64,000 nucleotides of DNA from Desulfuromonas sp. (GCA_002869615.1 PKUH01000110.1:125896-189895); one strand, 5' to 3'; positions 3,719 through 47,801 are shown, counted from the first letter of the stretch. Numbers and translations are program-made. The notes: generated by a model not told the origin, from the letters alone.

Positions 3719-5533
3719 TTATTCTTTTAGAACAGGGAACTCGATAACAACTTTAGTGTAATCACCAACTTCACTCTCAACAGAGATTGTGCCTCCATGC
3801 TTTTTTACTATATCGTAGGACATACTCAACCCAAGACCGGTCCCTATTCCGGCTGGTTTGGTCGTATAAAAAACATTGAATATCTTATTAATTTTTCCCG
3901 CAGGAATACCACATCCCTGATCCATAACTGACAGTTGCACTTTTTTTGCAGACCCTTCGCCCGTGCAACTTGCCTCTATGCGTATGACCTTACCCGGATC
4001 GTCCGTTGCATATTTTGCATTCAGGGCATGACGGGCATTGCTGATCAGGTTTATTAAAATCTGTTCCAGTTGCTGGACATTGCCCTGAACCTCAGGCAGG
4101 TCACTTTCAATGGAGACATCTACTGTTATCCCATCCTGTTCAAGTTGCCTTTCAAGCAGCTGCAATGGCGCACTAATGATCTCTTCAATCTGGAGCGGTT
4201 TAAACTCTTGTGCTTCCTGCCGGGAAAGGCTTAGCAGATTACTGACTATTTTAGCGACTCTGCCCCCTTCATACATAATACCGTTCAACATTTTGTCCGT
4301 GGATTCATCCTCCGGAAGTCGATTCTTCAGAATTTGTGCGTAGTTGATAACACCATTAATCGGGTTGTTGATTTCGTGGGCGACACCGGTCGCCAGCTCG
4401 CCAATCGATGCCATCTGGGCATCACGGATGCGCTGATCGAGCATTTTTTTCCGCTCGATCCAGTTTCGACAAAATGCTCTGGCCAAAAACCAGGCCCCGG
4501 AGAAATAGAGAAGGGCCAAAACCACGCCCAAAGTGATAAACACATTTTCCACATAAGAGACCGAAGCGGAAAGGAGATCTTCCGGAGTGTGCAGAACAGC
4601 ATACCAGCTATAACCGGAGTAAGGACCGGTCACGTTTCGGTGAGATGATTCGTCCCGGTTGCCGGCAGGGCTGATCGGAGCGATTTTGGAATAAACAAAA
4701 AGGCCCTGATCGTTTCTACTGAAATCGGCTCCTCCTTGTCCCATATCGTCCCATATATCGGGGAAATCCTTGTTAAACCGATCATCCCGGTCATACATGA
4801 ATCCCCATTCCTTAGCGGAATTCGGATGGGAGAGATAGAAGCCTTCCCGGTTCATCAGCATTAAATGCCCGGACAATGATCGTTGCGTATCACTCCTGAT
4901 CTGGTCAATTAAACGTTCAGCCAGGTAATTAAAAACAACGATACCGCGCTTCCTGTTTTTCTGGTCAAAAACCGGAATACCGAAACGGATCATCGGCTTG
5001 ATCGGCTCTTCTATCCGCCCATTTTCTACATTCAAATCGAGAGGTGACACGAATACGGAACCTGAATCGAGCCTGTAAGTATCGGTGAAGTAATAACGAT
5101 CCGACTTATCCTGAAGCTTTTGCCTGGGGATGGCCAGCGCCTTCCCGGCCAGGTAATTGACACGGATTTTCTCAAGACCGGAGTGATCAATGAAGCGGAT
5201 CTGATCAAAAACCTTTCGGCTCTCCATGAGTACGCTCCAGTCGTGCTCTATTTGTTTGATCTTCTCATCCGAAGGGGTTGTTAAATATACCTGAAAGGAA
5301 TGATTGCGACTCAACGCGATCAATTCTGCAATTACGGCGTCAAACTCTATGGAGACACTATTCTCAACTGAAAGTAAAGCCCCCGTACTCTGGCTCTTGA
5401 TATCGCTCAGATGTCTCTGGTATTGGGTTTGAAACAACAGAACAAAGATGATGATGGTAACGATTGAAGGGATGGCGAAGAGGGGATAAAAAATCTTCCG
5501 AAAATCATTTCGTGCACTATCGTCCATTTTCAT
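3719..5533 (-). CDS. sensor histidine kinase with large periplasmic (Cache-like) domain
   Basis: 604 aa. N-terminal TM, about 300 aa sensor region, second TM, H-box ELATGVAHEINNPING, HATPase motifs DQGCGIP and GTGLGLSMS. Confidence 0.9.
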   Translation of the reverse strand: MKMDDSARNDFRKIFYPLFAIPSIVTIIIFVLLFQTQYQRHLSDIKSQSTGALLSVENSVSIEFDAVIAELIALSRNHSFQVYLTTPSDEKIKQIEHDWSVLMESRKVFDQIRFIDHSGLEKIRVNYLAGKALAIPRQKLQDKSDRYYFTDTYRLDSGSVFVSPLDLNVENGRIEEPIKPMIRFGIPVFDQKNRKRGIVVFNYLAERLIDQIRSDTQRSLSGHLMLMNREGFYLSHPNSAKEWGFMYDRDDRFNKDFPDIWDDMGQGGADFSRNDQGLFVYSKIAPISPAGNRDESSHRNVTGPYSGYSWYAVLHTPEDLLSASVSYVENVFITLGVVLALLYFSGAWFLARAFCRNWIERKKMLDQRIRDAQMASIGELATGVAHEINNPINGVINYAQILKNRLPEDESTDKMLNGIMYEGGRVAKIVSNLLSLSRQEAQEFKPLQIEEIISAPLQLLERQLEQDGITVDVSIESDLPEVQGNVQQLEQILINLISNARHALNAKYATDDPGKVIRIEASCTGEGSAKKVQLSVMDQGCGIPAGKINKIFNVFYTTKPAGIGTGLGLSMSYDIVKKHGGTISVESEVGDYTKVVIEFPVLKE

Positions 5534-5689
5534 TGATATATCTATTCATCCTGCCCCCCGTGGCTAAAAAGTCGTCACCTGGCTCCATCTATAATGCGAC
5601 CAATATACTTGAAAAACAAGGAAAGGTCGAACAATCTGTCCGACCTTTCCTTATTCTGACAACCAAAAACTGCCAACTGACGACTTCCT

Positions 5690-6523
5690 TTATTTCTTCC
5701 TGGAAATTGTCTGTTCAATCATCGCCTTGAATCCGGGCAGGCTCCGTTGCTTGAGCAGCCGGCCGTTAACAAAGATCGACGGTGTCCCGCGGACACCATT
5801 TCTCTGCCCTTCGCGAAAATCACGCTGGACCAGGGCGGTGTACTCCCGAACTTTGTCCTTGAGATCCCGATCATAGCGGGTCATGTCGAGCCCGGCTGCT
5901 TCGGCAAGTTCCCTGATCTTCTCCGAACTCAGCTTGTTGTAGTTGGCGAATACCAGGTCATGGAACTCCCAGAACTTTCCCTGGTCGTTAGCAGCCAGGG
6001 AAGAGAGGGCTGCCGGACCGGCAAACTTGTGATTGCCGAGCGGAAAGTGCTTGAAAACCAGTTTGACATCTTTCGGGTATTGCTCGAGCACCTGCTCGAG
6101 TAGAGGCGTCAGCCTCGCACAGTACGGTCATTGGAAGTCGCTGTAAACAGCGACCACCACCTTTGCGTCATCCGGACCCTTGAAAGGCGATCCGGAGATA
6201 TCGATTTTTTTGATAAATTCGAGTGAGACCAGTTGAACCTCTTTGCCCTTATTGAGGATCAGCCGCTCACCGTCGGGTGAAACCGCTATCTTCTCGGCCG
6301 CGAAGTCGAGGTCGAGGCTCTCCTGTGGACGTCCCCAGGCATCGAGCACCTGGATCTTCCCATTTTCCTGTAGAACAAAGACCCGCTGTCCGTCGGCACT
6401 GGTCGTCATATCGATCGGGTCCGAATCGAGTTTGAGATTTCCGTTGACCTGCCATTCGACCTCGGCCGGAACGATTGCCGCCGGCAACAGGAACAGCAAG
6501 GTCAGCACACACATACGAAGCAT
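5690..6523 (-). CDS. DsbA/thioredoxin-fold thiol:disulfide oxidoreductase, predicted selenoprotein (UPYC redox motif)
   Basis: Track ORFs 6128-6580 and 5690-6091 are in the same frame and separated only by TGA (6130-6128). Reading through gives ...VVVAVYSDFQ-U-PYCARLTPLLEQVLEQYPKDVKLVFKHFPL..., with TGA at the first Cys of CxxC. Start chosen at the ATG at 6523 (MLRMCVLTLLFLLPAA signal peptide) with GGAGG upstream. Confidence 0.75.
6083..6116 (-). promoter_or_regulatory. candidate bacterial SECIS hairpins downstream of the in-frame UGA
   Basis: In the sense strand, GAGGC-UGAC-GCCUC (6116-6103) starts 11 nt after the UGA. CUCGAGC-AGGU-GCUCGAG (6100-6083) has a GGU-containing apical loop about 34 nt after the UGA. 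Confidence 0.5.
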
Positions 6524-6653
6524 CGTGAACCTCCTTTGCAAGGTAGAGTTAACTTTAATCATACCAGGCAGAAATAGCAACCCACGCGAGGATGATTCAT
6601 GCAGCCGAAGAGTTCCGTAATCGGCCCAAAATCAATGATAAAACTGCATCAGG

Positions 6654-7364
6654 TCAGGCATCACCGCCGGGCTGAAGATCGGTTGCATCACCTTCTTTAC
6701 CGTTTTTTTTAAGCAGACGGGCAACTATCAGGCCCAGGAAGAAAAAGAGTATGGCCAGGACCAGGGTCAAAATCCGGTGTTGATTCGTTGCCGATGCGAC
6801 ACCACCGAACAGGACAAAAGAGACCAGTGCCGGGATAATGCCGATGAACGTACCGATCGCAAAATCGAGCTGGCGCATCGCAGTCAGTCCGCAGGCAAAA
6901 TTCACCAGATCAAACGGAAGATATATCAGGCGCATGATCAGGACGGTGACCAGGCCATTCTGGCGCAGGCGCTGGTCCCAGCGTGCCGCCAGAGAACTCT
7001 CTGATTCCCGGGCCGCGACAAGATATCGCCCGAACCAGCGGGCCAGGAAAAATGCAAAATTGGCACTCGCATTCTCACCGATAATCGTAAAGATGACTCC
7101 AAGAAACGGCCCGAAAACAAGCCCCGACGCAATCGTCAAAAGCGCTGCCGGAAAGAGGATCAGAGGACGAATTGTATAAAAAACAACGTAAATCAGGGCC
7201 GCATGCAACAACCCGAACTGTTCAAGCCAGGATTCAAGACGGTACGGGATCTGCGTCAATGGAATCCCGGACTGCCACCAGAGAACAAGGCCGGAGCAGA
7301 AGATGGCAAGCCAGATGGTGGCGAGAAGTTTCTTGATGGCGGGATGGGCATCGAAAACTGACAA
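6654..7364 (-). CDS. TVP38/TMEM64 (DedA-related, VTT domain) membrane protein
   Basis: 236 aa polytopic membrane protein. Sequence pattern is typical of the SNARE-associated/TVP38 family. Confidence 0.7.
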   Translation of the reverse strand: MSVFDAHPAIKKLLATIWLAIFCSGLVLWWQSGIPLTQIPYRLESWLEQFGLLHAALIYVVFYTIRPLILFPAALLTIASGLVFGPFLGVIFTIIGENASANFAFFLARWFGRYLVAARESESSLAARWDQRLRQNGLVTVLIMRLIYLPFDLVNFACGLTAMRQLDFAIGTFIGIIPALVSFVLFGGVASATNQHRILTLVLAILFFFLGLIVARLLKKNGKEGDATDLQPGGDA

Positions 7365-16664: not shown

Positions 16665-17156
16665 CTAATAGTTTTTCTCTTTTTGGCCTTCGCGAACCGA
16701 CTTAACTGTAACTCTACCCGATGCCAGATCAAAAACCAGTGTTCGGCCAAAGTTACCGCCAACATCTTCAGCGACCAGCGGGATGCACAATTCGGCCAGC
16801 TTTGAGCGGGCGCAGGAAATATTTCTCTGGCCGATCGATTCTCCTGCCCAGGCCTGCAGTGCCTCAAACATATTGGCGCCACCGAAAATCTTTGCCTGAA
16901 GACGCGCGACAACGGCTCCTTCTGCCACCAACGCATCGACTAACAGACCGATCGATGCATCAACGAATTTGCTCATGCGGGACGTATCCATTCCGGGCCG
17001 TGGTGACGGTAGCAACGTATGGGCCATACCGCCGATTTTCAGCTCCGGGTCATAGAGAGTAATCCCGAGGCAGGAACCGAGACCGTAGGTCACGAGTTCA
17101 TTCGGCGCACTTGCGATTCTGAACTCGGAAATTCCGACGCGCTCACGCCCGGTCAT
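16665..17156 (-). CDS. cheD: chemoreceptor glutamine deamidase
   Basis: 163 aa with GLGSCLGITLYDP and GGMAHTLLP motifs. Confidence 0.9.
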   Translation of the reverse strand: MTGRERVGISEFRIASAPNELVTYGLGSCLGITLYDPELKIGGMAHTLLPSPRPGMDTSRMSKFVDASIGLLVDALVAEGAVVARLQAKIFGGANMFEALQAWAGESIGQRNISCARSKLAELCIPLVAEDVGGNFGRTLVFDLASGRVTVKSVREGQKEKNY

Positions 17157-17772
17157 TCACTCCCCCTACAGCAGTGGTAATCACCTCAAGCGATGTCGGA
17201 TCGGGCATCAGAAAAAAATGCCCGCGGATAATCTGTTCTTCCAGGCCGTTGCCATGAAATTCGGTCTCGATCATCAACGCCTGATTCCCCTCTTCACTCA
17301 ATTCGATCAGGAGAAAATCGATGATCGATCCGGCCATATCGTTGGCAAACAGCGGAATCGACGGAATCAGGCTCAGATTGAGCAGACTGCCCATCGCGCC
17401 GAGGTAGGCCGATGCCAGAATATTTCCGACCTCTTTGATCGTCGAGATTCCTATTTCATCAAAAACACCATCGACCGGTGCTTGCCCCAGAAGCCGCGAC
17501 ACCATCCGCTTGGCACTTTCCATCGGAAAGACCAACAGGATATTGCCGCAGGCGTCACCCCGGACCTGCAAGGTGATCCCGACAACAACCTGCTCCGGAC
17601 CGCCCATCAGGTCGGGAACTTCGACGATGTCAGCAACGGTCACCCGCGGTACATGGAGGTATATTGTTTCGCCGACCATCTGCGAAAGAGCCGTCGCGGC
17701 ATGCCCCATTCCGACATTGCTGATTTCACGTAAGGCGTCGAGATGTTCTTCTGTCAACTGCTTGAAAGTCAT
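17143..17772 (-). CDS. cheC: CheY-P phosphatase CheC
   Basis: 209 aa. LDALREISNVGMGHAATALS and the second repeat EVGNILASAY. Confidence 0.85.
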   Translation of the reverse strand: MTFKQLTEEHLDALREISNVGMGHAATALSQMVGETIYLHVPRVTVADIVEVPDLMGGPEQVVVGITLQVRGDACGNILLVFPMESAKRMVSRLLGQAPVDGVFDEIGISTIKEVGNILASAYLGAMGSLLNLSLIPSIPLFANDMAGSIIDFLLIELSEEGNQALMIETEFHGNGLEEQIIRGHFFLMPDPTSLEVITTAVGGVNDRA

Positions 17773-19652
17773 GCACTCTCCTCGACCTCTGAAAAAGAGA
17801 ATTGTTCCGTTTCAACCTCAAACAAAACCTGGGGATCGAGGATGAAAATTATTTTCCCTTCACCGGTGATCGTGGCGCCACTTACACCGGCAAGTTGACT
17901 CAACGGCGTCACCAGGGTTTTGACAAAAGCCTCCTGTTGACCGGAGAGCCGGTCGACGATTAAACCAACCTTGCGACCCTGAATCTCACTGATGACGAGA
18001 TGCATTGTCGCAGCCTCATGCTCCTGCAGATGCAACAACCGGTTGAGTGAATAGAGCGGAATGACTTCGTCGTCGAGCGGATATATCCTCTGCTTCCCGG
18101 ACAACTGAACCTCATTTGAGCCAAGGTCGAGTGTCCTCAGAACACGGGTGACCGGGATCCCGAGTGTCTGGCCATCACATTCGACCAGTAAAATTTTAAT
18201 AATGGCGATCGACAGCGGCAACTTCATGAGAACACGCGTCCCCTCGCCCCGTTTCGACGCAATCTCGAGCATGCCGCCGAGGCTCTCTACCGCTGATTTG
18301 ACCACATCCATACCGACACCGCGGCCGGAAGTTTCGGTTATCTGCCCAGCCGTGGAAAAACCGGGATAACAGACCCACTGAAAAATTTCGCGATCGGTCA
18401 GGGCTTTAATCTGGGCCGGCTTGAGGAAGTTCTTCTCATTCAACTTTTTTCGAACTGAAGCCGGGTCGATACCACGGCCATCATCGGAAACCTCGATCAG
18501 GGCCAGGTCCTTTTCGCGCCAGGCCCGAATCTGAACTGTTCCCTCCTTTTCGATACCGTGGTCAATCGCATTCCGAACCATATGAACAAGCGGATCGGCC
18601 AGGTCTTCCAGAATTGCCCGGTCAAGTTCGACATCATCGCCGATAATTTCAAGTTTGACCTTCTTGTCGCTTTTGCGGCACTGGTCCCTGACCAGACGGG
18701 GCAGATTGGCAGTGATGCTTTCAAGCGGAGTCATCCGGACCTGAAGGACATGATAATGGAGATCGGTGACCAGGCGGGTCAGCAGGTTCAGGCCGCTATC
18801 GATATCGTTCCACTCCTGAGAGCGGGCCGCAGATTGCAACATGTAACGATTGGTAATTAACTCTCCGGTCAGGTTGACAAACTTGTCGAGCAAGGCGGTC
18901 CGGACCCGGACGGTTCGTAGATCTTCATCACGCCGATTCGAGCGCCCTTCCTGACGCCGATCACTACCGAATGAAACATTGGCGATGTCCGGCATGGCTG
19001 ATATTTTTTGCGCAATAATTTCTTCGGAGACATCACTCTGCAGCCAGGCTGTAACCTGTTTGACGGCAAGCCCCTGTTTCATTTCCTCTTCACTCGGGTC
19101 GCAAGACCCGATTCGGCCAAACTCCTTCAGGGCCTCCAGAGCGAGAATGGCACGTGCCGCCGGCGCCGGAACATCTTCGGCAAGATCAATCAAAACCTTA
19201 AAAACCGGACCCGACTCCTCACTTGCATCATCGTTGACTTCAGGTTGATTACCTGATGACTCGCCGGCAGCTTCCGACACAACCAGAAGATCTTCTCCCC
19301 CCTCGGCCATAAAAGCAGTAACATCCTGTTCCGGTTCCTCAGCTTCAATATTGGCAAGCAACCCTTCCAGCAGATCGATTCCGGCCAGCAACCGATCAAC
19401 TGCCGGTTCGGGAACAACACCGGATTTTCGAAAATTGTCGAGGAAGTCTTCGAGATGATGGGCCAGAGTCGCCGTATTTTCAAAACCCATTGAGGCCGCC
19501 ATCCCCTTGATCGAGTGGGCCTCGCGAAAAAGGGCATCAATGCCCTCGCGGTCAGAGGGATTCTGCTCCAGCGCGATGGTGAGCTGACTCATTCTTTTGA
19601 GATGTTCCTTCGATTCCGACAGGAACAACTCCTGGTATTTCGACATGTCCAT
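17769..19652 (-). CDS. cheA: chemotaxis histidine kinase
   Basis: 627 aa. Hpt FREAHSIKG, HATPase DDGRGID and GRGVGMDVV, and a CheW-like C-terminus. Confidence 0.95.
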   Translation of the reverse strand: MDMSKYQELFLSESKEHLKRMSQLTIALEQNPSDREGIDALFREAHSIKGMAASMGFENTATLAHHLEDFLDNFRKSGVVPEPAVDRLLAGIDLLEGLLANIEAEEPEQDVTAFMAEGGEDLLVVSEAAGESSGNQPEVNDDASEESGPVFKVLIDLAEDVPAPAARAILALEALKEFGRIGSCDPSEEEMKQGLAVKQVTAWLQSDVSEEIIAQKISAMPDIANVSFGSDRRQEGRSNRRDEDLRTVRVRTALLDKFVNLTGELITNRYMLQSAARSQEWNDIDSGLNLLTRLVTDLHYHVLQVRMTPLESITANLPRLVRDQCRKSDKKVKLEIIGDDVELDRAILEDLADPLVHMVRNAIDHGIEKEGTVQIRAWREKDLALIEVSDDGRGIDPASVRKKLNEKNFLKPAQIKALTDREIFQWVCYPGFSTAGQITETSGRGVGMDVVKSAVESLGGMLEIASKRGEGTRVLMKLPLSIAIIKILLVECDGQTLGIPVTRVLRTLDLGSNEVQLSGKQRIYPLDDEVIPLYSLNRLLHLQEHEAATMHLVISEIQGRKVGLIVDRLSGQQEAFVKTLVTPLSQLAGVSGATITGEGKIIFILDPQVLFEVETEQFSFSEVEESA

Positions 19653-19701
19653 GGTGGACCCCGAGCGTTTCAGTGAAATCCGGGTTCAAATCGCCCGGAA
19701 A

Positions 19702-20079
19702 CTACGAACCGAGAACACGGCGGACAACGTCAAGCACCCGCTCTTCTTTAAACGGTTTTACAATAAAATCCTTGGCGCCGGCCTGTACTGCCTCGACAAC
19801 CAGTGCATCCTGACCGAGGGCGCTGCACATCACGATACAGGCATCCGGATCTGAACTACGGATATCCCGGAGCGCCTCGATGCCGCTTTTCAACGGCATA
19901 ACAATATCCATGGTGACCAGGTCAGGTTTCAGTTCGGCATATTTCGCAATAGCTTCTTCGCCATTAGCGGCCTCGCCAACGACCTCATGTCCGGCCTTGG
20001 TGAAAATATCCTTGAGCATGTTTCGCATGAAAAGGGCGTCATCGACGACCATTACCCTTACTGCCATTGTATCCTCCAA
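19702..20079 (-). CDS. cheY: chemotaxis response regulator
   Basis: 125 aa single receiver domain (VVDD...DLVTMDIVMP...K). Confidence 0.92.
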   Translation of the reverse strand: MEDTMAVRVMVVDDALFMRNMLKDIFTKAGHEVVGEAANGEEAIAKYAELKPDLVTMDIVMPLKSGIEALRDIRSSDPDACIVMCSALGQDALVVEAVQAGAKDFIVKPFKEERVLDVVRRVLGS

Positions 20080-20081
20080 TA

Positions 20082-20501
20082 TTATAACGTTTCCAAGCTA
20101 CTCAGGAGACTTGGGAGATCCAGCATATTGATCATTTTTTCTTCGTAACTGTAAAGCATCCGGATATGAAGATCCTTCTGTTCTTCCTGCTGACAGGTCA
20201 GTAACATTTCCCGGTTGAGCGGCACGATCCGATGTATTGCTGTAACCCCCAGAGCCAGCGCTTTCTGTCCAATCGGCAGAACGATTACACGTTGGCCATA
20301 GGCATCATCAGCCAATCCCATATAGCGGCTCAGATCGAGAACCGGGACTATATTACCGTGAAAGTTGATCGCGCCGAGAATCGACCTGGGAGCCCGCGGC
20401 ACATAATTGAGCTCCGGTGCTTCGACAATCTCCTGCAGATCGTCAACTTCCAGCCCGAACCATTCATCGGCCAGTCGAAAAACCAGAACAAGATCCATCA
20501 C
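20082..20501 (-). CDS. cheW: chemotaxis coupling protein
   Basis: 139 aa CheW-like domain, within the che operon. Confidence 0.88.
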
Positions 20502-21775
20502 GCACTCGGCAGATCATCCCCGAGTCGGAAGCGCTTGACGTTTTCCGCCAGGGTCTGGGCATAGGTTGCAAGTTCCTGGGCCGACTCGGCCATTTCACTC
20601 ATTGCCGCCGACTGCTCTTCGGTTGCAGCTGAACCTTCTTCAGTCGCCGCCGCATTGTCTGAAACAACCTGGGAAATCTCCTCTATTGCCTCGACCATTT
20701 TATTGGCGCCCTCGATCTGCTGACGTGACAACTCAGCAATACTGGTCGCCTTCGACTGGGTATTGACGGCCGTCTCAATAATCTCTTCAAATGCACTGTT
20801 GGTTTCATTGATTGCCTTGCGGCCTTCATCCATCTCCTGAATATTGTTGCGTAACGAAACCTCGACATTTTGCCCTTCACCCTGAACCTGGCCGATCAAC
20901 GTCGTAATTTCTTCAGCTGATTCGGTGGTCGAATCGGCTAGCTTCCGGATCTCTTCGGCGACGACAGCAAAGCCGCGGCCGTATTCTCCGGCCCGGGCCG
21001 CCTCGATAGTCGCATTCAGAGCAAGTAGATTGGTTTTCTGGGCAATGCCGTTGATCACCTCAACTATTTTCCCGATTTTGCCAAGCTGGTGACCGAAATT
21101 CACCACCTGTTCACCGCTGCGCTCGACATCCTGAAGAATCTGCAGCATCCGCTCCAGGGTCTGACGCGACTTTTCGCCACCCCCCTTGGCCGTCTGCGCG
21201 GTGATATCAACCGCGTCAGAAACCTTTTTCGAAGAGGATGCGACCAGTTCGGTATTGACCGCCATCTCCTTGATCAGACGGGATGCTTTTTCAACGGTCT
21301 CGGCCTGGATTTCGGCCCCGCGACTGATCTGTTCAACGGTATTGGCAAGTTCATGGCTGGAGGCTGTCATCTCTTCCGATGTTGCCGAAAGCCCCTGGGC
21401 AGAGTCACTGACCCGGACCGAAGCATCACGGACTCGACCGACCAACTCCCGGAGGTTGGCATTGACCCGATTCAATGAATCCGCCAGGTCTTCCGTTTCA
21501 TCGGCGAATCGCGACTCCTTCAACGTTATGGTTTGCGAAAGATCGCCGTTGCTGATCCGTTCTGCGGCCATCGTCAGAACTTTGATATTGCCGGTGAACG
21601 CTTTGGAGAAAAGTGATCCGAGAACCAGACCGACGAGAATGGCACCACCGGTCGAAACCAGCTGTTGCCAGACTTCGGCAATTCCGATCCTCGGAACCAG
21701 TAGGTTCAGAACCACAATGGAAGCAACGACAAAAATAAACCCCATGATGAATTTGTAGGTGATTTCGACACGCAT
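20498..21775 (-). CDS. methyl-accepting chemotaxis protein (short, HAMP + signalling domain)
   Basis: 425 aa with the highly conserved hairpin [31 protein letters not shown]. Confidence 0.93.
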
Positions 21776-21825
21776 CGCTCAATTCCTCCAGTCAATTCCT
21801 TATGACAAGCCGTTTGCGTTTGTAC

Positions 21826-22749
21826 TTAAAACCGCTCCGGGCCAAACTCATTTTCAATGCAACGATAAATCCGCTCAACCGGATATTCCGATCGGAATAT
21901 ATGCCGGGCCGATCCGACCAGGGTTTCAGCACGTCCGAGGACGAGGAAACGATCCGGACCGAGGGCCCGGGCAAATCTGTCGAGGATCTTCGCTTGCTCT
22001 TCCCTGGAAAAATAAATCATAACATTCCGGCAGAGTATCAGGTCCGCAGCCGGATAGTCGCTATTTTTCAACACATCGTGCGACCGGAACTCAACCCGCT
22101 GGCGAATCTCCTCGGTTAACTGGAAACGGGTACTCTCGACCCTCTCGAAATAACGCTCGCGCACTATGTCCGGTACTTCGGCCAGACGCTGGGCGTCATA
22201 TTCGCCAGATTCGGCCTTTTTCAGAATCGGCCGGCTGATATCGGTGCCCAGGATGCTGACTTCAACATCATCAGTGACCATCTCGTGCAGGAGTAAAGCC
22301 AGCGAGTAGGGTTCTTCACCACTTGAGCAACCGACGCTCCAGATCCGCAATTGTTTCCGCCCGGTCTGCCGGGCCGCGGCAAGCAACTCGGGAAAAATCT
22401 TTTCTTCCAGGACCCGGTAAGTCGACGGATTCCGGAAAAAATGCGAAACATGAATCGTCAGAACGGCCAGAAGTGCATCAATTTCATCATTATCCGCATC
22501 GAGCAGTTCGACGTAGTTGGCCGAGCTTCTCAACCCCTTGGCCCGAACCCGGCTGGCAATGCGTCGCTTGATGCAACGATCCTTGTAACTGCCGAGATCA
22601 AAAGCCCGGCGCGACAGCAGAATCCGAACAACCTCCTGAAAGTCCTCGTCAGTAAAATCGGCGCCGACAAACGGGGCCTTGCCCTCCGTGCCGAACGATT
22701 CCCGGTCCGTCATCCCGCTCCTGCCAACTGGCTGATGCCGTGAAGACAC
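21826..22749 (-). CDS. cheR: chemotaxis protein methyltransferase
   Basis: 307 aa with the SAM-binding motif IWSVGCSSGEEPYSLA. The exact start is uncertain (alternative ATG at 22713). Confidence 0.9.
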   Translation of the reverse strand: MSSRHQPVGRSGMTDRESFGTEGKAPFVGADFTDEDFQEVVRILLSRRAFDLGSYKDRCIKRRIASRVRAKGLRSSANYVELLDADNDEIDALLAVLTIHVSHFFRNPSTYRVLEEKIFPELLAAARQTGRKQLRIWSVGCSSGEEPYSLALLLHEMVTDDVEVSILGTDISRPILKKAESGEYDAQRLAEVPDIVRERYFERVESTRFQLTEEIRQRVEFRSHDVLKNSDYPAADLILCRNVMIYFSREEQAKILDRFARALGPDRFLVLGRAETLVGSARHIFRSEYPVERIYRCIENEFGPERF

Positions 22750-22832: not shown

Positions 22833-23828
22833 TTATCCTGTTTCTGGAAAGTGTTTGTAGCCGCGCTTCGCCGGCAGGGGGATGACTCCATCCGGCCCGT
22901 AAACCTTCAATTCCGAATGCCTTTCAACAATGCTGCCAATCCGGCCGATCGGCACGCCGGTTGATGCTGCAATATCGTCGATCATCGGTAAAGCTGAAGG
23001 GGGGGCGGTAAAGAGAAGTTCATAGTCTTCGCCGCCGGCCAGGGCAAGATCGATCAGAGAGGCATTGTTTGTCAACGCCGAACGGAAGGATGAAGAAAGC
23101 GGCAGCAGGTCAAGCTTGAGATCAGCACCAACCCCGGAAGCGGAGAGGAGGTGTTCAAGGTCACCGAGCAGGCCGTCCGAAATATCGATCATCGCTGTCG
23201 GGATATCACCGGCCGCGAGCCGGCGGCCGACTTCAACTCTGGCGGTCGGGTCAATATGCCGTTGCAACAGCTGCTCCTCCGGCGTCTGGCCGGAGAAAAG
23301 CTGCTGCAACGCCAGAGCACTGTCACCGACCGTACCGGTCACGCAAACAGCGTCACCAACTTCAGCGCCGTCTCGACCGACCCAGGCGGCCTCTGCGGCA
23401 ACTCCATAAGCAGTAACTGACAGCGTCAAACCGGAGGCCGAGCGACAGGTGTCGCCGCCGGCAAGAGTGATTCCATAGCCGGAACAAGCCGACAGGAACC
23501 CGTCAAGTAAATTTTCAAGATCGGCAATCGTAAGCAGGTCGGGGATGGCCAGAGAGAGAAACAGAAACCGGGGTTCCGCCCCCATGGCGGCGAGGTCACT
23601 GACGTTGACGGTTACCGCCTTGCGGCCGAGAGCATTTAAACCGATCCACTCCCTTTTGAAATGGACTCCCTCGGTCAGCAGATCCGTCGTTATCAACTGA
23701 ACCTCACCCGGGCCAATTGTCGTCACGGCACAATCATCACCGATGCCACGAATCAGGCATTCCGAAGAGCCGCATCGACTCTTCAGAAACCCGATTATGC
23801 TGAATTCATCGCGGCCAGCCAGCTTCAT
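22833..23828 (-). CDS. thiL: thiamine-monophosphate kinase
   Basis: 331 aa with AIR-synthase-related N and C domains (GDDCAV, DISDGL). Confidence 0.88.
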   Translation of the reverse strand: MKLAGRDEFSIIGFLKSRCGSSECLIRGIGDDCAVTTIGPGEVQLITTDLLTEGVHFKREWIGLNALGRKAVTVNVSDLAAMGAEPRFLFLSLAIPDLLTIADLENLLDGFLSACSGYGITLAGGDTCRSASGLTLSVTAYGVAAEAAWVGRDGAEVGDAVCVTGTVGDSALALQQLFSGQTPEEQLLQRHIDPTARVEVGRRLAAGDIPTAMIDISDGLLGDLEHLLSASGVGADLKLDLLPLSSSFRSALTNNASLIDLALAGGEDYELLFTAPPSALPMIDDIAASTGVPIGRIGSIVERHSELKVYGPDGVIPLPAKRGYKHFPETG

Positions 23829-27030: not shown

Positions 27031-27142
27031 ACTGTCAGTGTTACAGATTCCACGGGTTTTGCAAAGAACAGATTCGGGGGGAATAAAAAAGGTTCTTCGC
27101 AGATTAGAGTGAATACAATGTTAGACTCATCCTTCAGCTGGA

Positions 27143-27162
27143 TCAGAACAGGCAAGAAAAGT
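27143..27162 (+). repeat. 20-nt direct repeat copy 1 (TCAGAACAGGCAAGAAAAGT)
   Basis: Second copy TCAGGACAGGCAAGAAAAGT at 27566-27585, matching 19/20 and lying 423 nt away. Confidence 0.8.
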
Positions 27163-27338
27163 CTGGAGCCGGTCGTTTGATACCGGCAGTCTTGATTGGT
27201 TGGATAGGTCGGATAGGGACACTTCCCGAAGTTCAGGGAGGTGTCCCCTCAAGACAGAAGATGGAAGAACCGCGCGGTCGCGGCCGCGCACTCCGCCATA
27301 CTCTTTTATTAAGCCATAAAATGAGTATGCAGAAAACG

Positions 27339-27362
27339 GCTCCCTTGCAGGGGGCTTTTTTG
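27339..27362 (+). terminator. orphan rho-independent terminator in a 650-nt gene-free region
   Basis: GCUCCC-UUGCA-GGGGGC followed by UUUUUUG. No plus-strand CDS lies upstream. Confidence 0.55.
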
Positions 27363-27565
27363 TCCGGTCTGAATTATTTCTGTTCAACTTTGCTGCCAGG
27401 GAGTTCGCCTCGAGGCGAACGCGGTTCGTCGCTGTGGCAGTTGCGGTTGGGCTACGGTTTAGTGATACGCGCCAAAATAAGGCGACCTCAAGAGCAAAGG
27501 GGGCAAGTCAAAATTATCAATGGATTCCCCCTTCGGCTACTTCGGCGAGCTCAGTACAAGATAAC

Positions 27566-27585
27566 TCAGGACAGGCAAGAAAAGT
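27566..27585 (+). repeat. 20-nt direct repeat copy 2
   Basis: See copy 1 at 27143-27162. Confidence 0.8.
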
Positions 27586-27677
27586 AAAATGGTATTTGGG
27601 TGAGACCCTTTGTTCCCGATAAAACGCGATGAACCTTTTTTTACTGACAACTAATCTCTGACTACTGAAGACCCCCT

Positions 27678-38173: not shown

Positions 38174-39175
<1,002 letters not shown>

Positions 39176-41723: not shown

Positions 41724-41810
41724 GCCGAAGTGGTGGAACTGGTAGACACGCCGTCTTGAGGGGGCGGTGACTTAACGGTCGTGCGAGTTCGAGTCTCGCC
41801 TTCGGCACCA
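41724..41810 (+). tRNA. tRNA-Leu (anticodon GAG)
   Basis: GCCGAAG acceptor stem, long variable arm, T-arm GAGTTCGAGTCTC and encoded CCA. The anticodon loop is TTGAGGG. The secG-tRNA-Leu(GAG) linkage mirrors secG-leuU in E. coli. Confidence 0.92.
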
Positions 41811-41856
41811 TTCAAAAACAAGTAGTTGAAATTACTAGACTTTAACTACAGAATTG

Positions 41857-41913
41857 ACAGCGCTACACAAAATGCTACACTGCGAGGTGAGCTACGTGAG
41901 CGCTGTTTTTTTA
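41857..41913 (+). terminator. hairpin plus T-run after the tRNA, within the track's 5' extension of the integrase ORF
   Basis: CAGCGCT...AGCGCTG inverted repeat followed by TTTTTTTA. It contains GCTACAC twice. Confidence 0.45.
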
Positions 41914-41931
41914 TCTAACATACCGGTCAAT

Positions 41932-43419
41932 ATGCAGTTACGTAATAAAAGATATCATTACCGTAGGCGTGTACCTGCGAATCTGGTTGAATTATTCAAC
42001 AGAAAAGAGATCACCAAATCTCTCCACACAACTGAGGGCAGAGCTGCCTCGCGTTTAAAGAACAAGTTAGACGGTGAACTTGAAGCCCTCTTTCAAGCAT
42101 GTCGTTTTAATGCACTCTCCCAAGATGAAGCCCAGCAACGCCTATCGCTTATCCTCACAGGTAAACCATTACCTGATCTACAAGAAGCAACTGAAACCAA
42201 AATCACTACTGTTAAGACTCGGAACAAACGAGCCGGCAAAAGGCTTTCTGAAGCAGTTGATGCTTACTGCAAAGAGAAAGAGCATTCCTGGACGCAGAAG
42301 ACCAAGAAAGAATACTCTGGCATCTATGATCGCATAATTAAGGGACTAGGAGACCCTTGGCTAAATGATCTTGAACGCACTGACCTTGTAATTTACAGAG
42401 ATACGTTAACTCGTGAAGGCAAGAGCATTAAGACCGTTAACAAGTATCTTGAAATCCTCTCTACAGTTCTTAAACACGCGAGCAGGTTAAAGTGGATTCA
42501 AGGTAATCCTGGTGAAGGGCTCGGATTGAAAGACAATAGACGCCCTGATGAAATGAGAAGAGCGTTTACTGTCAAAGAAATCAAAACAATCTTTGAAGCG
42601 CTGCAACGAGATAAGAAGTTCTTCTATGAACAGGGCCGCCATGAACGCTACTGGCTTCCCCTGCTCGGAATCTACACTGGTGGTCGTGTTAATGAACTCG
42701 CCCAGCTAGGGATTAAAGACATTATTATCGAGGATGGAATTCCAACCATTGAAATCACTGAAAATGGCGATGATAGTAAGAGCGTCAAGACTTCAAATTC
42801 CAGACGAAAGATTCCTATCCATAAAGACCTTCTGACACTAGGGTTTCTGGTCTATGTCAACAATATCAAAGCACAGGGGAACAATATGCTTTTCCCAGCC
42901 TTGATCAATGGTCCCAATGGATACTCCCACTATTTTGTTAAACACTTTTCAGGTAAGGCCGGGTGGTTAAGGAAACAGCTTAAAGATCTTGAGAAAGGTG
43001 TAGCCTTTCATAGCTTCAGGCATATATTTATAGACATACTTAAGAACGCTGAAATATCAGAACGGCTCATCGAGGAGATTGCAGGACATCGCCTCACCTC
43101 CATGAGCCTCGGCAGATATGGCAAGCCTTACAAAGTCGATGTGCGCCTTAAGGCAATCAACAAGATCGACTACGGCTTGATTCCCAAAGTGAAGCCGGAA
43201 GTACGATTGGTTGATATTGAAGGCACTGATGCAGTTGAAGAACATGACTATCTTGTATGCGGGAAGACCAGTGTTCGTATCATCCTTGAAGATAAAGAGC
43301 AGCCTTTAGAATTGAAACAATACAAGCGTCCAGACCTACATGGCTACAGTCCATTCCATAAAGAGATAGAGGGTTTTGTTGAAGATGAGCTAGTTGCTAA
43401 GGATAGCCTTGACGAATAA
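41932..43419 (+). CDS. int: tyrosine site-specific recombinase (island integrase)
   Basis: Start preferred at MQLRNKRYHYRRRVP (ATG at 41932). Catalytic pattern GGRVNE (R), HSFRH (H-x-x-R) and LGRYGKPY (Y). It lies immediately 3' of a tRNA at the compositional break. Confidence 0.9.
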   Translation: MQLRNKRYHYRRRVPANLVELFNRKEITKSLHTTEGRAASRLKNKLDGELEALFQACRFNALSQDEAQQRLSLILTGKPLPDLQEATETKITTVKTRNKRAGKRLSEAVDAYCKEKEHSWTQKTKKEYSGIYDRIIKGLGDPWLNDLERTDLVIYRDTLTREGKSIKTVNKYLEILSTVLKHASRLKWIQGNPGEGLGLKDNRRPDEMRRAFTVKEIKTIFEALQRDKKFFYEQGRHERYWLPLLGIYTGGRVNELAQLGIKDIIIEDGIPTIEITENGDDSKSVKTSNSRRKIPIHKDLLTLGFLVYVNNIKAQGNNMLFPALINGPNGYSHYFVKHFSGKAGWLRKQLKDLEKGVAFHSFRHIFIDILKNAEISERLIEEIAGHRLTSMSLGRYGKPYKVDVRLKAINKIDYGLIPKVKPEVRLVDIEGTDAVEEHDYLVCGKTSVRIILEDKEQPLELKQYKRPDLHGYSPFHKEIEGFVEDELVAKDSLDE

Positions 43420-43532
43420 GCACTAATGAATTAAAGTTCGCAACATTGTGAGCATGCCTCACACTTTGCCCGATTCAGCATCCCCCCTCCGCTGTTTCGG
43501 GCTTCTTTTATTGTCTGAAAGCCATACACACA

Positions 43533-44084
43533 CTAAGTACAGTCACCACCCATTTTAATTTCAATCAACATGCCGTCGTTATTAAACTTGAATGTCATGA
43601 AGGTTCCCATCGCATTACAATGTTGAAAATAACATTGAGACAAATTTTCATTACAGTGATCAGAAGCATTAAAAGTGTCGCTGTGATTCTTCTGTAAATA
43701 ATCAACTCCAAGAATACTAAACACTTCTTCGCGACTTAATCCAACATGGACACCGGAAGGCGTCTTATCCTGACTGTTTTGAGTTTTGATCCACGTCATA
43801 TGGTTATAACAAGTTCCTATTTCTAACGTGTCAAACTTATATGTGGGCCAATCAGTACCTAAATATCCACCTACTGGCTCACCCAAGATATCTTTTGTTT
43901 CTTGGATGTCATGTCCCGTAGTTATGCCACGAACTGTAAACTCAGAACCAGGCAGACAATACTCACTCTCGACGATCGGGGTGCCATAGCGCAATAACGT
44001 CGAGCGCTCATCAGCACTAGCTACACTAACAGTTAAAGCCAACAGAATTAAGAATGTTACTGTGAAGATTTTAGAGTTCAACAT
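43533..44084 (-). CDS. hypothetical secreted protein
   Basis: ATG at 44084 with GGAGGAGGG upstream and signal peptide MLNSKIFTVTFLILLALTVSVASA. Several Cys residues. Confidence 0.65.
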   Translation of the reverse strand: MLNSKIFTVTFLILLALTVSVASADERSTLLRYGTPIVESEYCLPGSEFTVRGITTGHDIQETKDILGEPVGGYLGTDWPTYKFDTLEIGTCYNHMTWIKTQNSQDKTPSGVHVGLSREEVFSILGVDYLQKNHSDTFNASDHCNENLSQCYFQHCNAMGTFMTFKFNNDGMLIEIKMGGDCT

Positions 44085-44100
44085 ATCCCTCCTCCTTCGA

Positions 44101-44859
44101 TTAATCCATTGCATCAGACACAACTGTCACCCAAGCGACTGTATTGAAACCTTCTGGAGATATCTTTAGAATCCTTACATTGCTGTATTCTGAATCGTGT
44201 AAATAAATTTCATTCATACTGTTTTTGATAAATGACGCTTTTCGACCTATAAGATGGTAACTATTCTTTAACTCACCTTTGTAATATAGCTCTAGATATT
44301 GTTCTTGAATTTCATCATCGGTATTTGTTAGTAGAAGACTTATTTTTACCGACAGCACAGACAATAAATTATCAAAATCTAGTTTACTTATGGTGAACAC
44401 AGATTGTGGCTCTTGCATTAGTTTATTTGTGGCTCTATCAAGAACATCAATAGAGAAAACTTTTTGCATGTCTCCTATATAACGTGAGCCAGCAATCTGA
44501 CACCTAATATGGTTTTGTCCGAAAGATTCAATACATTCTTTGAGATATTTTTCTGTTTCCATACGCTTACTATCTATCTGAACAAGAAGCTTTTGGATAT
44601 AAGCCTCATAATACCTTTCGGGATTAAGCACAGATTCAAGCTTTAACGCATCACCAGTTAATCTATAAAAATGGCTAGAACGAATATCAGAAAGATTAAC
44701 TCCCATTTTCGAGAGGTCATTTATTCGATAATCACCTTCAGCTTTTAATTTGATGACAATATTTTCAGGACTCGGAATAGGAACAGTTTCAACTTCCTGG
44801 GCAATGCAAGCCCCTTTTATCACTACGATAAGACTCAGAACACATACAAGATATTTCAT
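44101..44859 (-). CDS. hypothetical secreted protein
   Basis: 252 aa with signal peptide MKYLVCVLSLIVVIKGACIA. No motif recognised. Confidence 0.65.
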   Translation of the reverse strand: MKYLVCVLSLIVVIKGACIAQEVETVPIPSPENIVIKLKAEGDYRINDLSKMGVNLSDIRSSHFYRLTGDALKLESVLNPERYYEAYIQKLLVQIDSKRMETEKYLKECIESFGQNHIRCQIAGSRYIGDMQKVFSIDVLDRATNKLMQEPQSVFTISKLDFDNLLSVLSVKISLLLTNTDDEIQEQYLELYYKGELKNSYHLIGRKASFIKNSMNEIYLHDSEYSNVRILKISPEGFNTVAWVTVVSDAMD

Positions 44860-44901
44860 AGGATCAACCCTTCAACAATACCCTCCGACACTAAAGGAGA
44901 G

Positions 44902-46209
44902 CTACAAAATGATTATGTCTAGTTTGTCTTTCCAGGTATTAAAACCATCCACATCATTTATATAGTCATGAATGATTCGATGAAAGCCATCGGGTTTGCT
45001 TGAGATATACTTCTGTCGGTTCGTTTCTTCAAAAGCAGACATTAATCCCTCAAGCTCTTTGAACTTTAATTTCATGGAGGTAATATCTTTTTCTACTACC
45101 CAAATATATGTAGCTAAAGACTCATCGTATGTCTCCAACACAAAGTAGTATTTATCATCCCCTTCCAAGAGGAAGAGAAAGCTAAAGGGCTTAACTGTAA
45201 ACCTCAACTTGAAAAGATCTGCTTTGTGCTTATCAGCCAGATATTTCAGAGGGAGATAATGCTTAGGCTTCTTAAACTCAAATGCTTTCTCCAATATTGA
45301 CTCAGGATCGTTTTGAGATGGCTTTAAATTAGACTCAAAATTGTCTGCGAAGAACTCATCTGATGTTTTTAGCTTAGACTCATCATCTATATTTGATCTC
45401 TTGCTGAACATTTGATCGAAGGCGTATGTGTACTTAACATCTTCAATAATACGTTCATCGATACTCTCTATTTCTTTAGAGAAGACACTCACTATTTCAA
45501 ATGATTCTTCCTGACCAGACTCATTTACCTTCACCATTAATTCAAGAACAAATTCAGCGTTCTTCCTGCCTATTTTCTTGCCGATATACTTAGACACACA
45601 ATCAAACTGGGTCTTGATAAAATCGTTGTTCACCTTTACCTCAACTTTGGGTAAATGCTTGTATGGATGATGCCTAAAGCACACATATCCTTCGTTGTAT
45701 TCCAAGTTGGTAAATGGAACCATGATAGACTGTGTAACCTTTTCTGTTTTCAGTGTCTTCTCACTAGGTGGGGATATGTTGGCAATATCTATATTTGAAG
45801 TATTGAGTTCTTTTTTCTGTGGTGCTGAAGGTAAGTTGCGGAGAGGTTGACGCGTACTATGACTGTTGGGTCTAGCTCTCATTGCGCTCTTGGCAGATGA
45901 ATGTGCTTTAGAGCGTACTGTGCAGCCAAGGAGGCTTGCCGTGTCTATATGACTAAAGATTATTCTATTGATGCGTCCGGTGAAGTCAGCCTGTGTAGAG
46001 AATGAATGCTGTGAAGAGCTGTAGTTTTTTATCACTGCGTATAGAGTGCCTGTTCTTTCTTCATACTTTGTCACATCAAGTGCCCAATACACCCCTGGCT
46101 TAAATTTATGAAAGCCTTTTGAGATGTTTGTTCCACTCAAGGGAAGTGCCTCTGTCGCATTGTAAAAAACTTCATTTCCAGAGAACTTGATAATCAACGT
46201 TCTATTCAT
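44902..46209 (-). CDS. hypothetical protein (two domains joined by a basic low-complexity linker)
   Basis: 435 aa with GGAGG upstream of the ATG. No domain recognised. Confidence 0.7.
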   Translation of the reverse strand: MNRTLIIKFSGNEVFYNATEALPLSGTNISKGFHKFKPGVYWALDVTKYEERTGTLYAVIKNYSSSQHSFSTQADFTGRINRIIFSHIDTASLLGCTVRSKAHSSAKSAMRARPNSHSTRQPLRNLPSAPQKKELNTSNIDIANISPPSEKTLKTEKVTQSIMVPFTNLEYNEGYVCFRHHPYKHLPKVEVKVNNDFIKTQFDCVSKYIGKKIGRKNAEFVLELMVKVNESGQEESFEIVSVFSKEIESIDERIIEDVKYTYAFDQMFSKRSNIDDESKLKTSDEFFADNFESNLKPSQNDPESILEKAFEFKKPKHYLPLKYLADKHKADLFKLRFTVKPFSFLFLLEGDDKYYFVLETYDESLATYIWVVEKDITSMKLKFKELEGLMSAFEETNRQKYISSKPDGFHRIIHDYINDVDGFNTWKDKLDIIIL

Positions 46210-46250
46210 GGCAGTTCACTACCTCCTCAGTGTCTACTCTACAAGAGGCT

Positions 46251-46267
46251 GTGACAAAATATGTCAC
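46251..46267. promoter_or_regulatory. near-perfect palindrome GTGACAAAATATGTCAC upstream of the 435-aa gene
   Basis: Inverted repeat GTGACA/TGTCAC in the 104-nt gap between the HNH gene and the 435-aa gene. Confidence 0.4.
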
Positions 46268-46313
46268 GGCAAAAAAGCCAACCTACTACTGGAAAGTTAT
46301 ATGCGTATATGAT

Positions 46314-46568
46314 TTAGACTTCTTGCTGCCTGACAAACTTTTTCAAACTTATACTTCCTTTTGCCGAATTACATTTACTACATGCAAAATCCAGATTACT
46401 CGGTGCCCAAGTTCCACCTTTGGACAACGGCCTCAAGTGATCCAGTGTTGCCTGGGAATATGTAAGCTTCCTGTCACAATATCGACAAGTCACATAGCCT
46501 CTGGATTTCTTGTTTTTGAACAGGTGCTTTTTGAGTGCATTCTTTGATCTTGAGTTTCTTGCAGACAC
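46314..46568 (-). CDS. small HNH endonuclease
   Basis: 84 aa with CRYC...DHLRPLSKGG...N...CSKCNSAKG. Confidence 0.85.
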   Translation of the reverse strand: MSARNSRSKNALKKHLFKNKKSRGYVTCRYCDRKLTYSQATLDHLRPLSKGGTWAPSNLDFACSKCNSAKGSISLKKFVRQQEV

Positions 46569-46597
46569 TTATTACTACCCCCTCCAACACTTATTCT

Positions 46598-47113
46598 TTA
46601 CCTACACATCCTATCCCGTTTACGCCTCATACTATTATCAAGTCTAGTCTTTGCCGTATGACAGTCATCACATAGAGTAGCCAGGTTAGCGATACTGTTA
46701 TCACCACCATTCATCAATGCTCTCTTGTGGTCAACTTCTAGCTTATATGTGCTCCCACATATCACGCACTGATGACCATCACGTCTTTTGATATATCGTT
46801 TAGTTTCTTGGGATACATCACGTTCATACTTGACCAGGTTGCAATCTAATGCGCCTACATTTTCGTTTGCTTCCCTGTAGTAGCTATAGATTGCTCGTTC
46901 ACGCAGTTCACCCTTGAGGGTTTTGATCTCTTTAGTTGGTTTGTTGTAACTAGGTGTGCTGCTCTGTTTCTTATAGCCAGAGTTGTGATAGTGGTACTCT
47001 CCAGTCTTTCTGTTTGTATGACCACCATTTGAATCAGTTCTGCCAGAGTGGGAATAGCTGAAGGTGCTTATTAGTATTAAGAGTAAGAGTATTGTGATTG
47101 ATTTATCAATCAT
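46598..47113 (-). CDS. secreted YHYH-motif + HNH nuclease domain protein
   Basis: 171 aa. Signal peptide, GEYHYHNSGY, then CVICGS...EVDHKRALMNGGDNSIANLATLCDDCHTAKT. Confidence 0.82.
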   Translation of the reverse strand: MIDKSITILLLLILISTFSYSHSGRTDSNGGHTNRKTGEYHYHNSGYKKQSSTPSYNKPTKEIKTLKGELRERAIYSYYREANENVGALDCNLVKYERDVSQETKRYIKRRDGHQCVICGSTYKLEVDHKRALMNGGDNSIANLATLCDDCHTAKTRLDNSMRRKRDRMCR

Positions 47114-47114
47114 G

Positions 47115-47801
47115 TTATCTCAAATTTTCTAATAGGTAATTAATTCCATCATCAACACTGCCATTAGATATATAGTCACAAAATGAATGCCCACCATTTC
47201 GCCTAACTACATCAATGTTGACGCTGTTTCTCTTTAGATACTCACTGAACCTTCGGTCTTCCTCTTCAGTGCCATCATCTATATTACTAAAAACTTTTAT
47301 TTTAAGACTGTTGATGTTGATCCTGTTCGATGCAATTGCAGCTTCTGTCATTCCTGCCCCGGCGAAAGTTACTAGTGCCTTAACTGGGGCTAAGCTCATT
47401 GCCAAGAATGTAGCTACATATGCACCATAAGAGTTGCCTGCGATTGAAATGTTGCGTGGTCTAGGGCTTCTTGTTTTAGGCAACAACTCTTGCAATAAAA
47501 ACATCATGAAAGCATTTAAAAAATTATCGTGAGTGTGTTTCCCAGATGGAGGAGACGAAAGAGCTATAAAATCACAATTTATGTTTGCATTGCCTATTGC
47601 ACATTTAAATATTTCAGCAAGCTTATCAGGGCTAGAGTTCATTCTCTGAGCGTACTCTTGCTCGTTAATCGAACCTCCAATAAAGACAACTAGATTATTG
47701 GAGGATTCTTCGCCAGCCCAATAATAATCAGCGTGGGTATTTCTGCCTAATGTTGATACATCTATTATGATCTTTCTGTGTTCCAATGTTGTATATTTCA
47801 A
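47115..47801 (-). CDS. alpha/beta hydrolase (Ser-Asp-His triad)
   Basis: 228 aa with nucleophile elbow GNSYG, NIDDGT and GGHSF. The TTG start overlaps the upstream stop. Confidence 0.7.
   Translation of the reverse strand: MKYTTLEHRKIIIDVSTLGRNTHADYYWAGEESSNNLVVFIGGSINEQEYAQRMNSSPDKLAEIFKCAIGNANINCDFIALSSPPSGKHTHDNFLNAFMMFLLQELLPKTRSPRPRNISIAGNSYGAYVATFLAMSLAPVKALVTFAGAGMTEAAIASNRININSLKIKVFSNIDDGTEEEDRRFSEYLKRNSVNIDVVRRNGGHSFCDYISNGSVDDGINYLLENLR

Follow-up and report, generated by a model that had tools for sequence, protein, structure and literature searches.

A gene that public annotation divides in two lies near one end of the 64,000-nucleotide stretch of Desulfuromonas sp. DNA analysed here (GCA_002869615.1 PKUH01000110.1:125896-189895; hereafter the window, with positions counted from its first nucleotide). 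In our reading of the minus strand across 5500-6800, together with the list of open reading frames (ORFs), an ORF at 6128-6580 closes at a TGA (6130-6128), and a second ORF at 5690-6091 continues in the same frame after 12 sense codons, just as a preliminary description of this DNA had stated. Read-through translation gives ...VVVAVYSDFQ-[TGA]-PYCARLTPLLEQVLEQYPKDVKLVFKHFPL..., and the complete coding sequence spans 5690-6523 (minus strand), that is, 277 codons from an ATG at 6523 to a TAA at 5692-5690 with the UGA as the sole internal stop. The UGA (6128-6130, minus strand) is codon 132, the first position of a U-P-Y-C redox motif (6130-6119), and is the proposed site of selenocysteine (Sec). 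We hold with high confidence that 6523-5690 on the minus strand is one gene, encoding an exported DsbA-like thiol-disulfide oxidoreductase whose UGA is read as Sec; public gene calls cut it into a 131-residue 'hypothetical' protein and a 133-residue truncated DsbA.

Translation likely starts at ATG 6523 rather than at TTG 6580, and a Shine-Dalgarno-like AAGGAGG can be read from the sequence 6 nt 5' of that ATG (6530-6536, minus strand). At the other end, an intrinsic-terminator-like hairpin with a U-run stands 33 nt past the TAA (5613-5657, minus strand; -30.4 kcal/mol, z = -8.0). A terminator-pattern scan listed nothing from the UGA to codon ~240; its sole matches, at 5799-5779 and on the complement, lie inside the downstream coding part. 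With the terminator placed after the second half and not after the TGA, we count both halves as one transcription unit. TGA is also the commonest ordinary stop codon in the window, ending 18 of 35 genes, so the genetic code is taken to be standard and not reassigned. The neighbouring genes in the window encode a VTT/DedA-type membrane protein, a DUF815 ATPase, chorismate synthase and a histidine kinase.

The encoded protein consists of a signal peptide, about two beta-propeller blades and a DsbA-fold domain with U132-P-Y-C135. By inspection, its N terminus is a predicted type I signal peptide, MLRMCVLTLLFLLPAAIVPA followed by EVEW (6464-6523, minus strand), in which a lipobox is absent; the region forms a helix (residues 2-11) at low predicted local distance difference test (pLDDT) score in the structural model described below, and all orthologues have hydrophobic N termini. 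Export would proceed by the general secretion pathway, with cleavage after VPA. The next domain (residues about 25-105; 6209-6451, minus strand) is all-beta, and an AlphaFold2 (AF2) monomer model built from the homologue alignment (pLDDT 89.9, predicted template modelling score 0.74) places seven beta strands at residues 36-100 with high pLDDT. In a profile search of Protein Data Bank sequences, the YVTN beta-propeller 1l0q (E = 3e-16) and further propellers align with residues 27-105, while Pfam and NCBIfam hold no curated family for this domain and return only sub-threshold propeller matches. The preliminary description had singled out the N-terminal secreted domain as unusual; it does resemble roughly two YVTN-type blades, but it is not peculiar to this gene, as a domain of roughly 100 residues is conserved family-wide, in forms with cysteine (Cys) and with Sec alike.

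Residues 112-270 (5714-6190, minus strand) form the DsbA-fold catalytic domain (Thioredoxin_4 / DSBA), as assigned by Pfam and Foldseek. With Cys put at the TGA position for the domain searches, Pfam Thioredoxin_4 (PF13462) scores 83.9 bits against a cut-off of 23.2 (E = 1.8e-23, residues 112-270) and DSBA (PF01323) 81 bits against 25.6 (E = 1.3e-22). Both matches span the TGA, which bears out the earlier proposal of a thioredoxin-fold domain running across it. In the AF2 model, helix 134-148 begins at the UPYC motif, with an insertion of helices 168-241 in the thioredoxin fold; Thr247-Pro248 (5780-5785, minus strand) is the cis-proline loop motif (GTP), with columns that are invariant among full-length Cys homologues. 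Foldseek places the catalytic domain nearest to BdbD (3eu3; target-normalised TM score 0.80), and also recovers ScsC, Wolbachia alpha-DsbA2, Corynebacterium DsbA/TsdA and BcfH.

A search of 5.8 billion proteins returned 5205 homologues, the top full-length ones being ~280 residues long, 45-52% identical over 92-100% of the query and of the same architecture. In an alignment of the query with 19 of these full-length Cys homologues (alignment A1), the TGA falls on the first Cys of a near-invariant D-F-Q-C-P-Y-C motif. The preliminary description had placed the TGA at the first Cys of the CxxC motif and had proposed comparison with Cys orthologues as a check; run here, that comparison agrees. We then used alignment A1 to probe one genome per GTDB species, a scan that returned 80 loci, mostly from Desulfobacterota. 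At the active-site codon, 73 orthologous loci from named genomes carry TGA (37) or TGC/TGT (36), and none of the 73 carries TAA or TAG. Carriers of the TGA form include the isolates Desulfopila sp. IMCC35006, Desulforhopalus sp. IMCC35007 and Desulfobacterota bacterium M19, plus metagenome-assembled genomes (MAGs); the closest relative, from a Desulfuromonas MAG (L004), is itself a Sec form with 61% identity.

Orthologues that end at the TGA had been named beforehand as an outcome that would speak against Sec, and this is not what the genomes hold: of the 37 Sec loci, 35 have unbroken frames, with about 135-170 codons upstream and about 140-150 codons downstream to a normal stop, and the products of the Sec loci are 35-61% identical to the window protein. 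One of the two exceptions lies at a contig end and the other (L047:3406) has a short downstream frame. In the latter, a TGA follows after only 75 downstream codons, which could reflect a frameshift, an assembly error or real decay.

The locus itself is common to three public assemblies (JGI 3300007102 Ga0102541_1111465, ENA ERZ794999 NODE_442 and Logan SRR5894289). Both contigs that were aligned (JGI and ENA) show the TGA; from Logan come the shared locus and the same 131-residue call. Between the window and the public contigs the gene differs by one base, away from the TGA. Exact look-ups of window proteins in public records recovered chorismate synthase; the 131-residue fragment, PGK, TIM, PurB and the histidine kinase had no entry.

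Two hairpins follow the UGA in the mRNA, and it had been suggested that either could be the bacterial selenocysteine insertion sequence (SECIS). The more distal one, hairpin 2 (CUCGAGC-AGGU-GCUCGAG; 6083-6100, minus strand; -10.7 kcal/mol), has its apical loop at 6093-6090, 34 nt past the UGA, and is the conserved SECIS core. In an ungapped alignment of 38 Sec forms that takes in 9 nt ahead of the TGA and 63 nt beyond it (alignment A3), 94.7% of its cells are paired and five of seven pairs show compensatory changes, a covariation that none of 500 column shuffles matches; when the partners are slid by 1-3 columns, only 30-43% of cells pair. Its six inner pairs are present in all 38 Sec forms, whereas 36 Cys forms have a mean of 2.9 of the six (Mann-Whitney p = 6e-15), and the predicted pairing probability is 0.98 for Sec forms versus 0.06 for Cys forms. 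The loop is AGGU in 31 Sec forms and AGUU in 7.

The amino acids over hairpin 2 co-vary so as to preserve the helix (LEQVLE, LDQVVE, LQQVLD, IQQVLE, FRQLSD), and in Sec forms the wobble positions of codons +10 to +13 have an entropy of 0.0-0.7 bits, falling to 0.00 at the loop codons +12/+13; the same positions in Cys forms, like the codons on either side, show 1.4-1.9 bits. The published consensus for the bacterial SECIS asks for an apical loop of 3-9 nt, a stem of 4-16 bp, a G in the first two loop positions, a distance of 16-37 nt from the UGA and a minimum free energy (MFE) of -7.5 kcal/mol or lower (PMC13188914). Hairpin 2 agrees with it throughout, having a 4-nt loop, a 7-bp stem, 34-nt spacing and -10.7 kcal/mol, with G at loop position 2 and then G or U. 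In a scan of the full 64 kb, no other in-frame TGA flanked by open frame on either side was followed by a hairpin with an AG[G/U]U loop. A SECIS-competent structure 3' of the UGA, as the preliminary description had proposed, is thus borne out by covariation, by the consensus and by specificity to the Sec forms.

Hairpin 1 (GAGGC-UGAC-GCCUC; 6103-6116, minus strand) begins 11 nt past the UGA and stands between it and the SECIS core. Some version of it is present in all Sec forms, with a shifting register: 13 sequences have the start of the 5' arm at +12, and 14 have it at +8. The MFE of the region is -8.3 kcal/mol in Sec forms versus -4.2 kcal/mol in Cys forms (p = 1e-8), and the wobble G that opens its 3' arm is conserved (entropy 0.47 versus 1.97 bits). 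Its loop G is not conserved. Of the suggestion that either hairpin could be the SECIS, the half concerning hairpin 2 therefore stands, while hairpin 1, with its variable register and unconserved loop G, is better seen as accessory; from these sequence patterns, hairpin 2 is the probable SelB-binding core and hairpin 1 a putative accessory element. A closing helix around both hairpins as a three-way junction (GUACUG/CAGUAC, columns 15-20 with 58-63) was considered and rejected, with pairing at 61.8% compared to 61.3% in shuffled alignments.

Several observations weigh against a Sec-encoding UGA. The fold of the window sequence alone is not significant (z = -1.74), for which reason the case for the SECIS structure rests on the comparative evidence. 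Rfam has no model that matches the element, and a permissive threshold around the site gave one match at chance level. The 64 kb window contains no tRNA-Sec, its lone tRNA being a tRNA-Leu, and no selA, selB or selD among its annotated ORFs, and neither a scan for TGA-split frames nor one for a TGA followed by an AG[G/U]U hairpin turned up a further selenoprotein gene there that could act as an internal control. The window comes from a metagenome contig, and the Sec trait of the organism is accordingly ascribed from its lineage: Desulfuromonas, Geobacter and Desulfotalea are documented Sec users, and the trait, together with DsbA-like, DsbG-like and thiol:disulfide-interchange selenoproteins, is documented in Deltaproteobacteria including Desulfuromonas and Geobacter (PMC1794560). 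At gathering thresholds, Rfam reports no family in the window. An AIRS-domain protein at 22833-23828 was considered as SelD and is ThiL.

Within recoding, the UGA could be decoded through SelB and the SECIS to a residue other than Sec, for example Cys carried on a selC-like tRNA. The identity of the inserted residue cannot be read by sequence analysis, Cys is chemically acceptable at the site, being used by half of the orthologues, and Cys-carrying selC-like tRNAs have reportedly been described in some anaerobes. We nevertheless find this reading very improbable: a costly UGA and SECIS have been kept in 38 lineages though TGC or TGT gives Cys, which speaks for a residue out of reach of Cys codons, and the surrounding lineages are documented Sec users (PMC1794560).

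Equally slight is the chance that termination at the UGA dominates, giving a secreted 131-residue propeller-fragment protein and at most a 133-residue product restarted at GTG 6091, with the hairpins acting in mRNA stability or pausing. Since Sec is as a rule inserted with low efficiency, a certain amount of truncated product is to be expected, above all under selenium scarcity, and a GTG start is available for the ORF at 5690-6091. That GTG, however, has no ribosome-binding site upstream, and the restarted product would be without signal peptide, strand beta-1 and the whole U/CxxC motif, the Pfam domain beginning at residue 112, before the TGA. The Cys orthologues, moreover, are all single polypeptides, and the position and loop of hairpin 2 agree with the SECIS consensus.

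The proposal that the TGA is a true stop, arising from a nonsense mutation, a pseudogene or a sequencing error, with the downstream DsbA half as dead sequence, draws on the public gene callers that read two ORFs and on the lack of visible Sec machinery in the window, and it can be set aside as scarcely credible because the same TGA recurs in independent assemblies (JGI, ENA) and at the identical codon in 37 other species, never as TAA or TAG, the frames beyond it stay open, with protein-level conservation over a span of 35-61% identity, the code is standard, a covarying hairpin is specific to the TGA forms, and the invariant residues in alignment A1 contradict the neutral downstream evolution (ratio of nonsynonymous to synonymous substitution rates, dN/dS, near 1) that dead sequence would display.

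Four things are shown for the locus: its frame is single and conserved, Sec and Cys correspond at the catalytic position, a covarying hairpin of SECIS type distinguishes the TGA forms, and the protein has a DsbA fold. Under our reading of the gene as a selenoprotein gene, the UGA at 6130-6128 would be decoded as Sec, with the actual incorporation of selenium deduced from this pattern. By established knowledge of bacterial Sec insertion, hairpin 2, with its 6-7 bp and AG[G/U]U loop, would recruit SelB-GTP-Sec-tRNA(Sec) to the ribosome with the UGA positioned in the A site. For hairpin 1, which is under selection in Sec forms, the probable role would be that of a spacer, insulator or pause element. 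The nucleotide following the UGA is a C, a weak context for termination.

As to enzymatic direction, analogy inclines us towards disulfide exchange of the isomerase or reductase type in the anaerobic periplasm, and away from a DsbA-type oxidant, a preference with about an even chance of being right. A two-blade propeller fragment would have to oligomerise to close, and we take ScsC, alpha-DsbA2 and BcfH to be isomerases or reductases oligomerised through their N termini. A catalyst of this type is proposed because of this hypothetical propeller oligomerisation, the nucleophilic Sec and the lack of a linked oxidase partner: a comparison of flanks found no DsbB-, VKOR- or DsbD-like partner linked to the gene, and its neighbours are not kept beside the orthologues. 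In many Desulfobulbales and Desulfobacterales genomes the orthologues are flanked by phoH (29 loci) and by ybeY/pdxJ-like genes (27 loci), a housekeeping setting that the window does not share.

A rough neighbour-joining tree built on the catalytic domain intermingles Sec and Cys forms, and parsimony calls for no fewer than 16 state changes. Since all Sec forms have the hairpin at the same codons and the two forms are mixed on the tree, the simplest reading of these sequences would be an old Sec form with repeated Sec-to-Cys replacement, a picture that fits the one described in PMC1794560. One Syntrophaceae MAG (L040:809) carries a TGC form that keeps both hairpins, with six of six hairpin 2 core pairs and a pairing probability of 0.86, and resembles a fossil SECIS, the trace of a recent change from Sec to Cys.

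A wider interpretation would make this a large, undescribed subfamily of translocon-exported Desulfobacterota selenoproteins, ancestrally Sec-containing, in which a propeller-oligomerised, selenium-dependent isomerase or reductase is made by means of a bipartite SECIS that needs its accessory hairpin. The homologous SECIS at the same codons in 38 species, the at least 16 Sec/Cys switches and the one fossil SECIS support the ancestral-Sec part, and we regard the interpretation taken whole as unlikely. If true, a bipartite SECIS made of an accessory hairpin and a distal AG[G/U]U hairpin would go beyond the single-hairpin consensus.

The gene adds to a known class, as DsbA-like UxxC selenoproteins have been reported since 2005, and its chief value is therefore a corrected annotation. 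In that year a Sargasso Sea study reported UxxC selenoproteins of both the DsbA-like and the DsbG-like kind (PMC1088965), both were later found in bacterial genomes including those of Deltaproteobacteria (PMC1794560), and a 2026 review lists 'DsbA-like protein form 1, PF01323, UxxC' (PMC13188914), a definition that the window protein fits. The preliminary description was right, on the evidence of these three papers, to call such proteins already known, deltaproteobacterial lineages included. Like the published DsbA-like and DsbG-like selenoproteins, the window protein has a DsbA-family thioredoxin fold, Sec in place of the first Cys of CxxC, widespread Cys homologues and a home among the Deltaproteobacteria. 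It differs in that the original DsbA-like selenoproteins were tied to COG2761 (FrnE-type), whereas ours scores best on PF13462, on the BdbD/ScsC/COG1651-type branch, a comparison made at the level of family assignments. Its signal peptide and two-blade propeller fragment are, moreover, unmentioned in PMC1088965, PMC1794560 and PMC13188914.

The best NCBIfam match is NF041057 (Rcas_1661 thioredoxin-like (seleno)lipoprotein), which is likewise exported and DsbA-like and has Sec and Cys forms. Membership of that family was rejected, as the match reaches 68.5 bits against a cut-off of 190, covers the C-terminal domain only and comes without a lipobox Cys after the hydrophobic segment. Among solved structures, the nearest folds are BdbD (3eu3), ScsC (4gxz, 4xvw, 7rgv), alpha-DsbA2 (6eez) and BcfH (7jve), with target-normalised TM scores of 0.56-0.81 and 20-27% identity. 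All of these are Cys proteins with helical N-terminal modules, whereas the window protein has Sec and a beta-propeller fragment. Several of the four presumably have N-terminal modules that serve oligomerisation.

For the RNA, the closest comparison is the SECIS of the E. coli fdhF type, which is also a stem-loop inside the coding sequence 3' of the UGA with a small apical loop that starts with G and then G or U; we take the hairpin 2 motif GC-AGGU-GC to resemble the fdhF apical region. The fdhF-type loop lies about 17 nt from the UGA. Here the distance is 34 nt, near the top of the 16-37 range, and the gap is filled by a separate conserved hairpin.

To this known class, our analysis adds the identification of the actual SECIS, the finding that about half of a large two-domain Desulfobacterota subfamily uses Sec, and the observation that the Sec forms are split in public annotation. 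Full-length Sec forms were absent from the search of 5.8 billion proteins, in which the full-length matches were Cys forms with at most 52% identity, though a 61%-identical Sec form exists in DNA. Because Sec forms are not retrieved as full-length proteins, surveys based on proteomes under-count the family and misjudge its domain content. The motif N6-AG[G/U]U-N6, 28-45 nt past the UGA, could be used to mend this annotation, and offers a clean system for studying SelB recognition in the phylum. The gene also adds a predicted periplasm-directed, signal-peptide-bearing thiol-disulfide enzyme to the selenoproteome of anaerobes, and such an enzyme would imply that selenium affects the folding or repair of envelope proteins.

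Other features of the window stand apart from the selenoprotein gene. A glyceraldehyde-3-phosphate dehydrogenase gene (38174-39175, plus strand) has an in-frame TAG (38459-38461) at the conserved E-[S/C]-T-G (...VDIVIE*TGLFT...). Both halves of that gene otherwise look intact, and the TAG might have arisen through a sequencing error or a recent nonsense mutation, or might be suppressed.

A tRNA-Leu(GAG) at 41724-41810 is directly followed by a tyrosine integrase (41854-43419) and an island, and the whole region, 41724-57000, looks like an integrated mobile element with anti-phage defence. Its genes include an HNH nuclease (46598-47113), an AGS_C/SMODS-type protein (48180-49517) and a PycTM effector (49514-50176) that adjoins a nucleotide cyclase (50200-51033) in a Pycsar-like arrangement, and also RadC, ArdC and an rve transposase (55004-55786).

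By coordinate arithmetic, the JGI (160 kb) and ENA (32 kb) contigs both end near 27.3-27.6 kb of the window, inside a 650-nt stretch free of ORFs (27031-27677), and for the proteins to the right of this stretch exact matches were not found in public records; it may be an assembly breakpoint or a strain-variable junction. A chemotaxis cluster on the minus strand (17143-22749), comprising CheC/CheX, CheA, MCP and CheR, lies between a LolA-like gene and thiL-lon.

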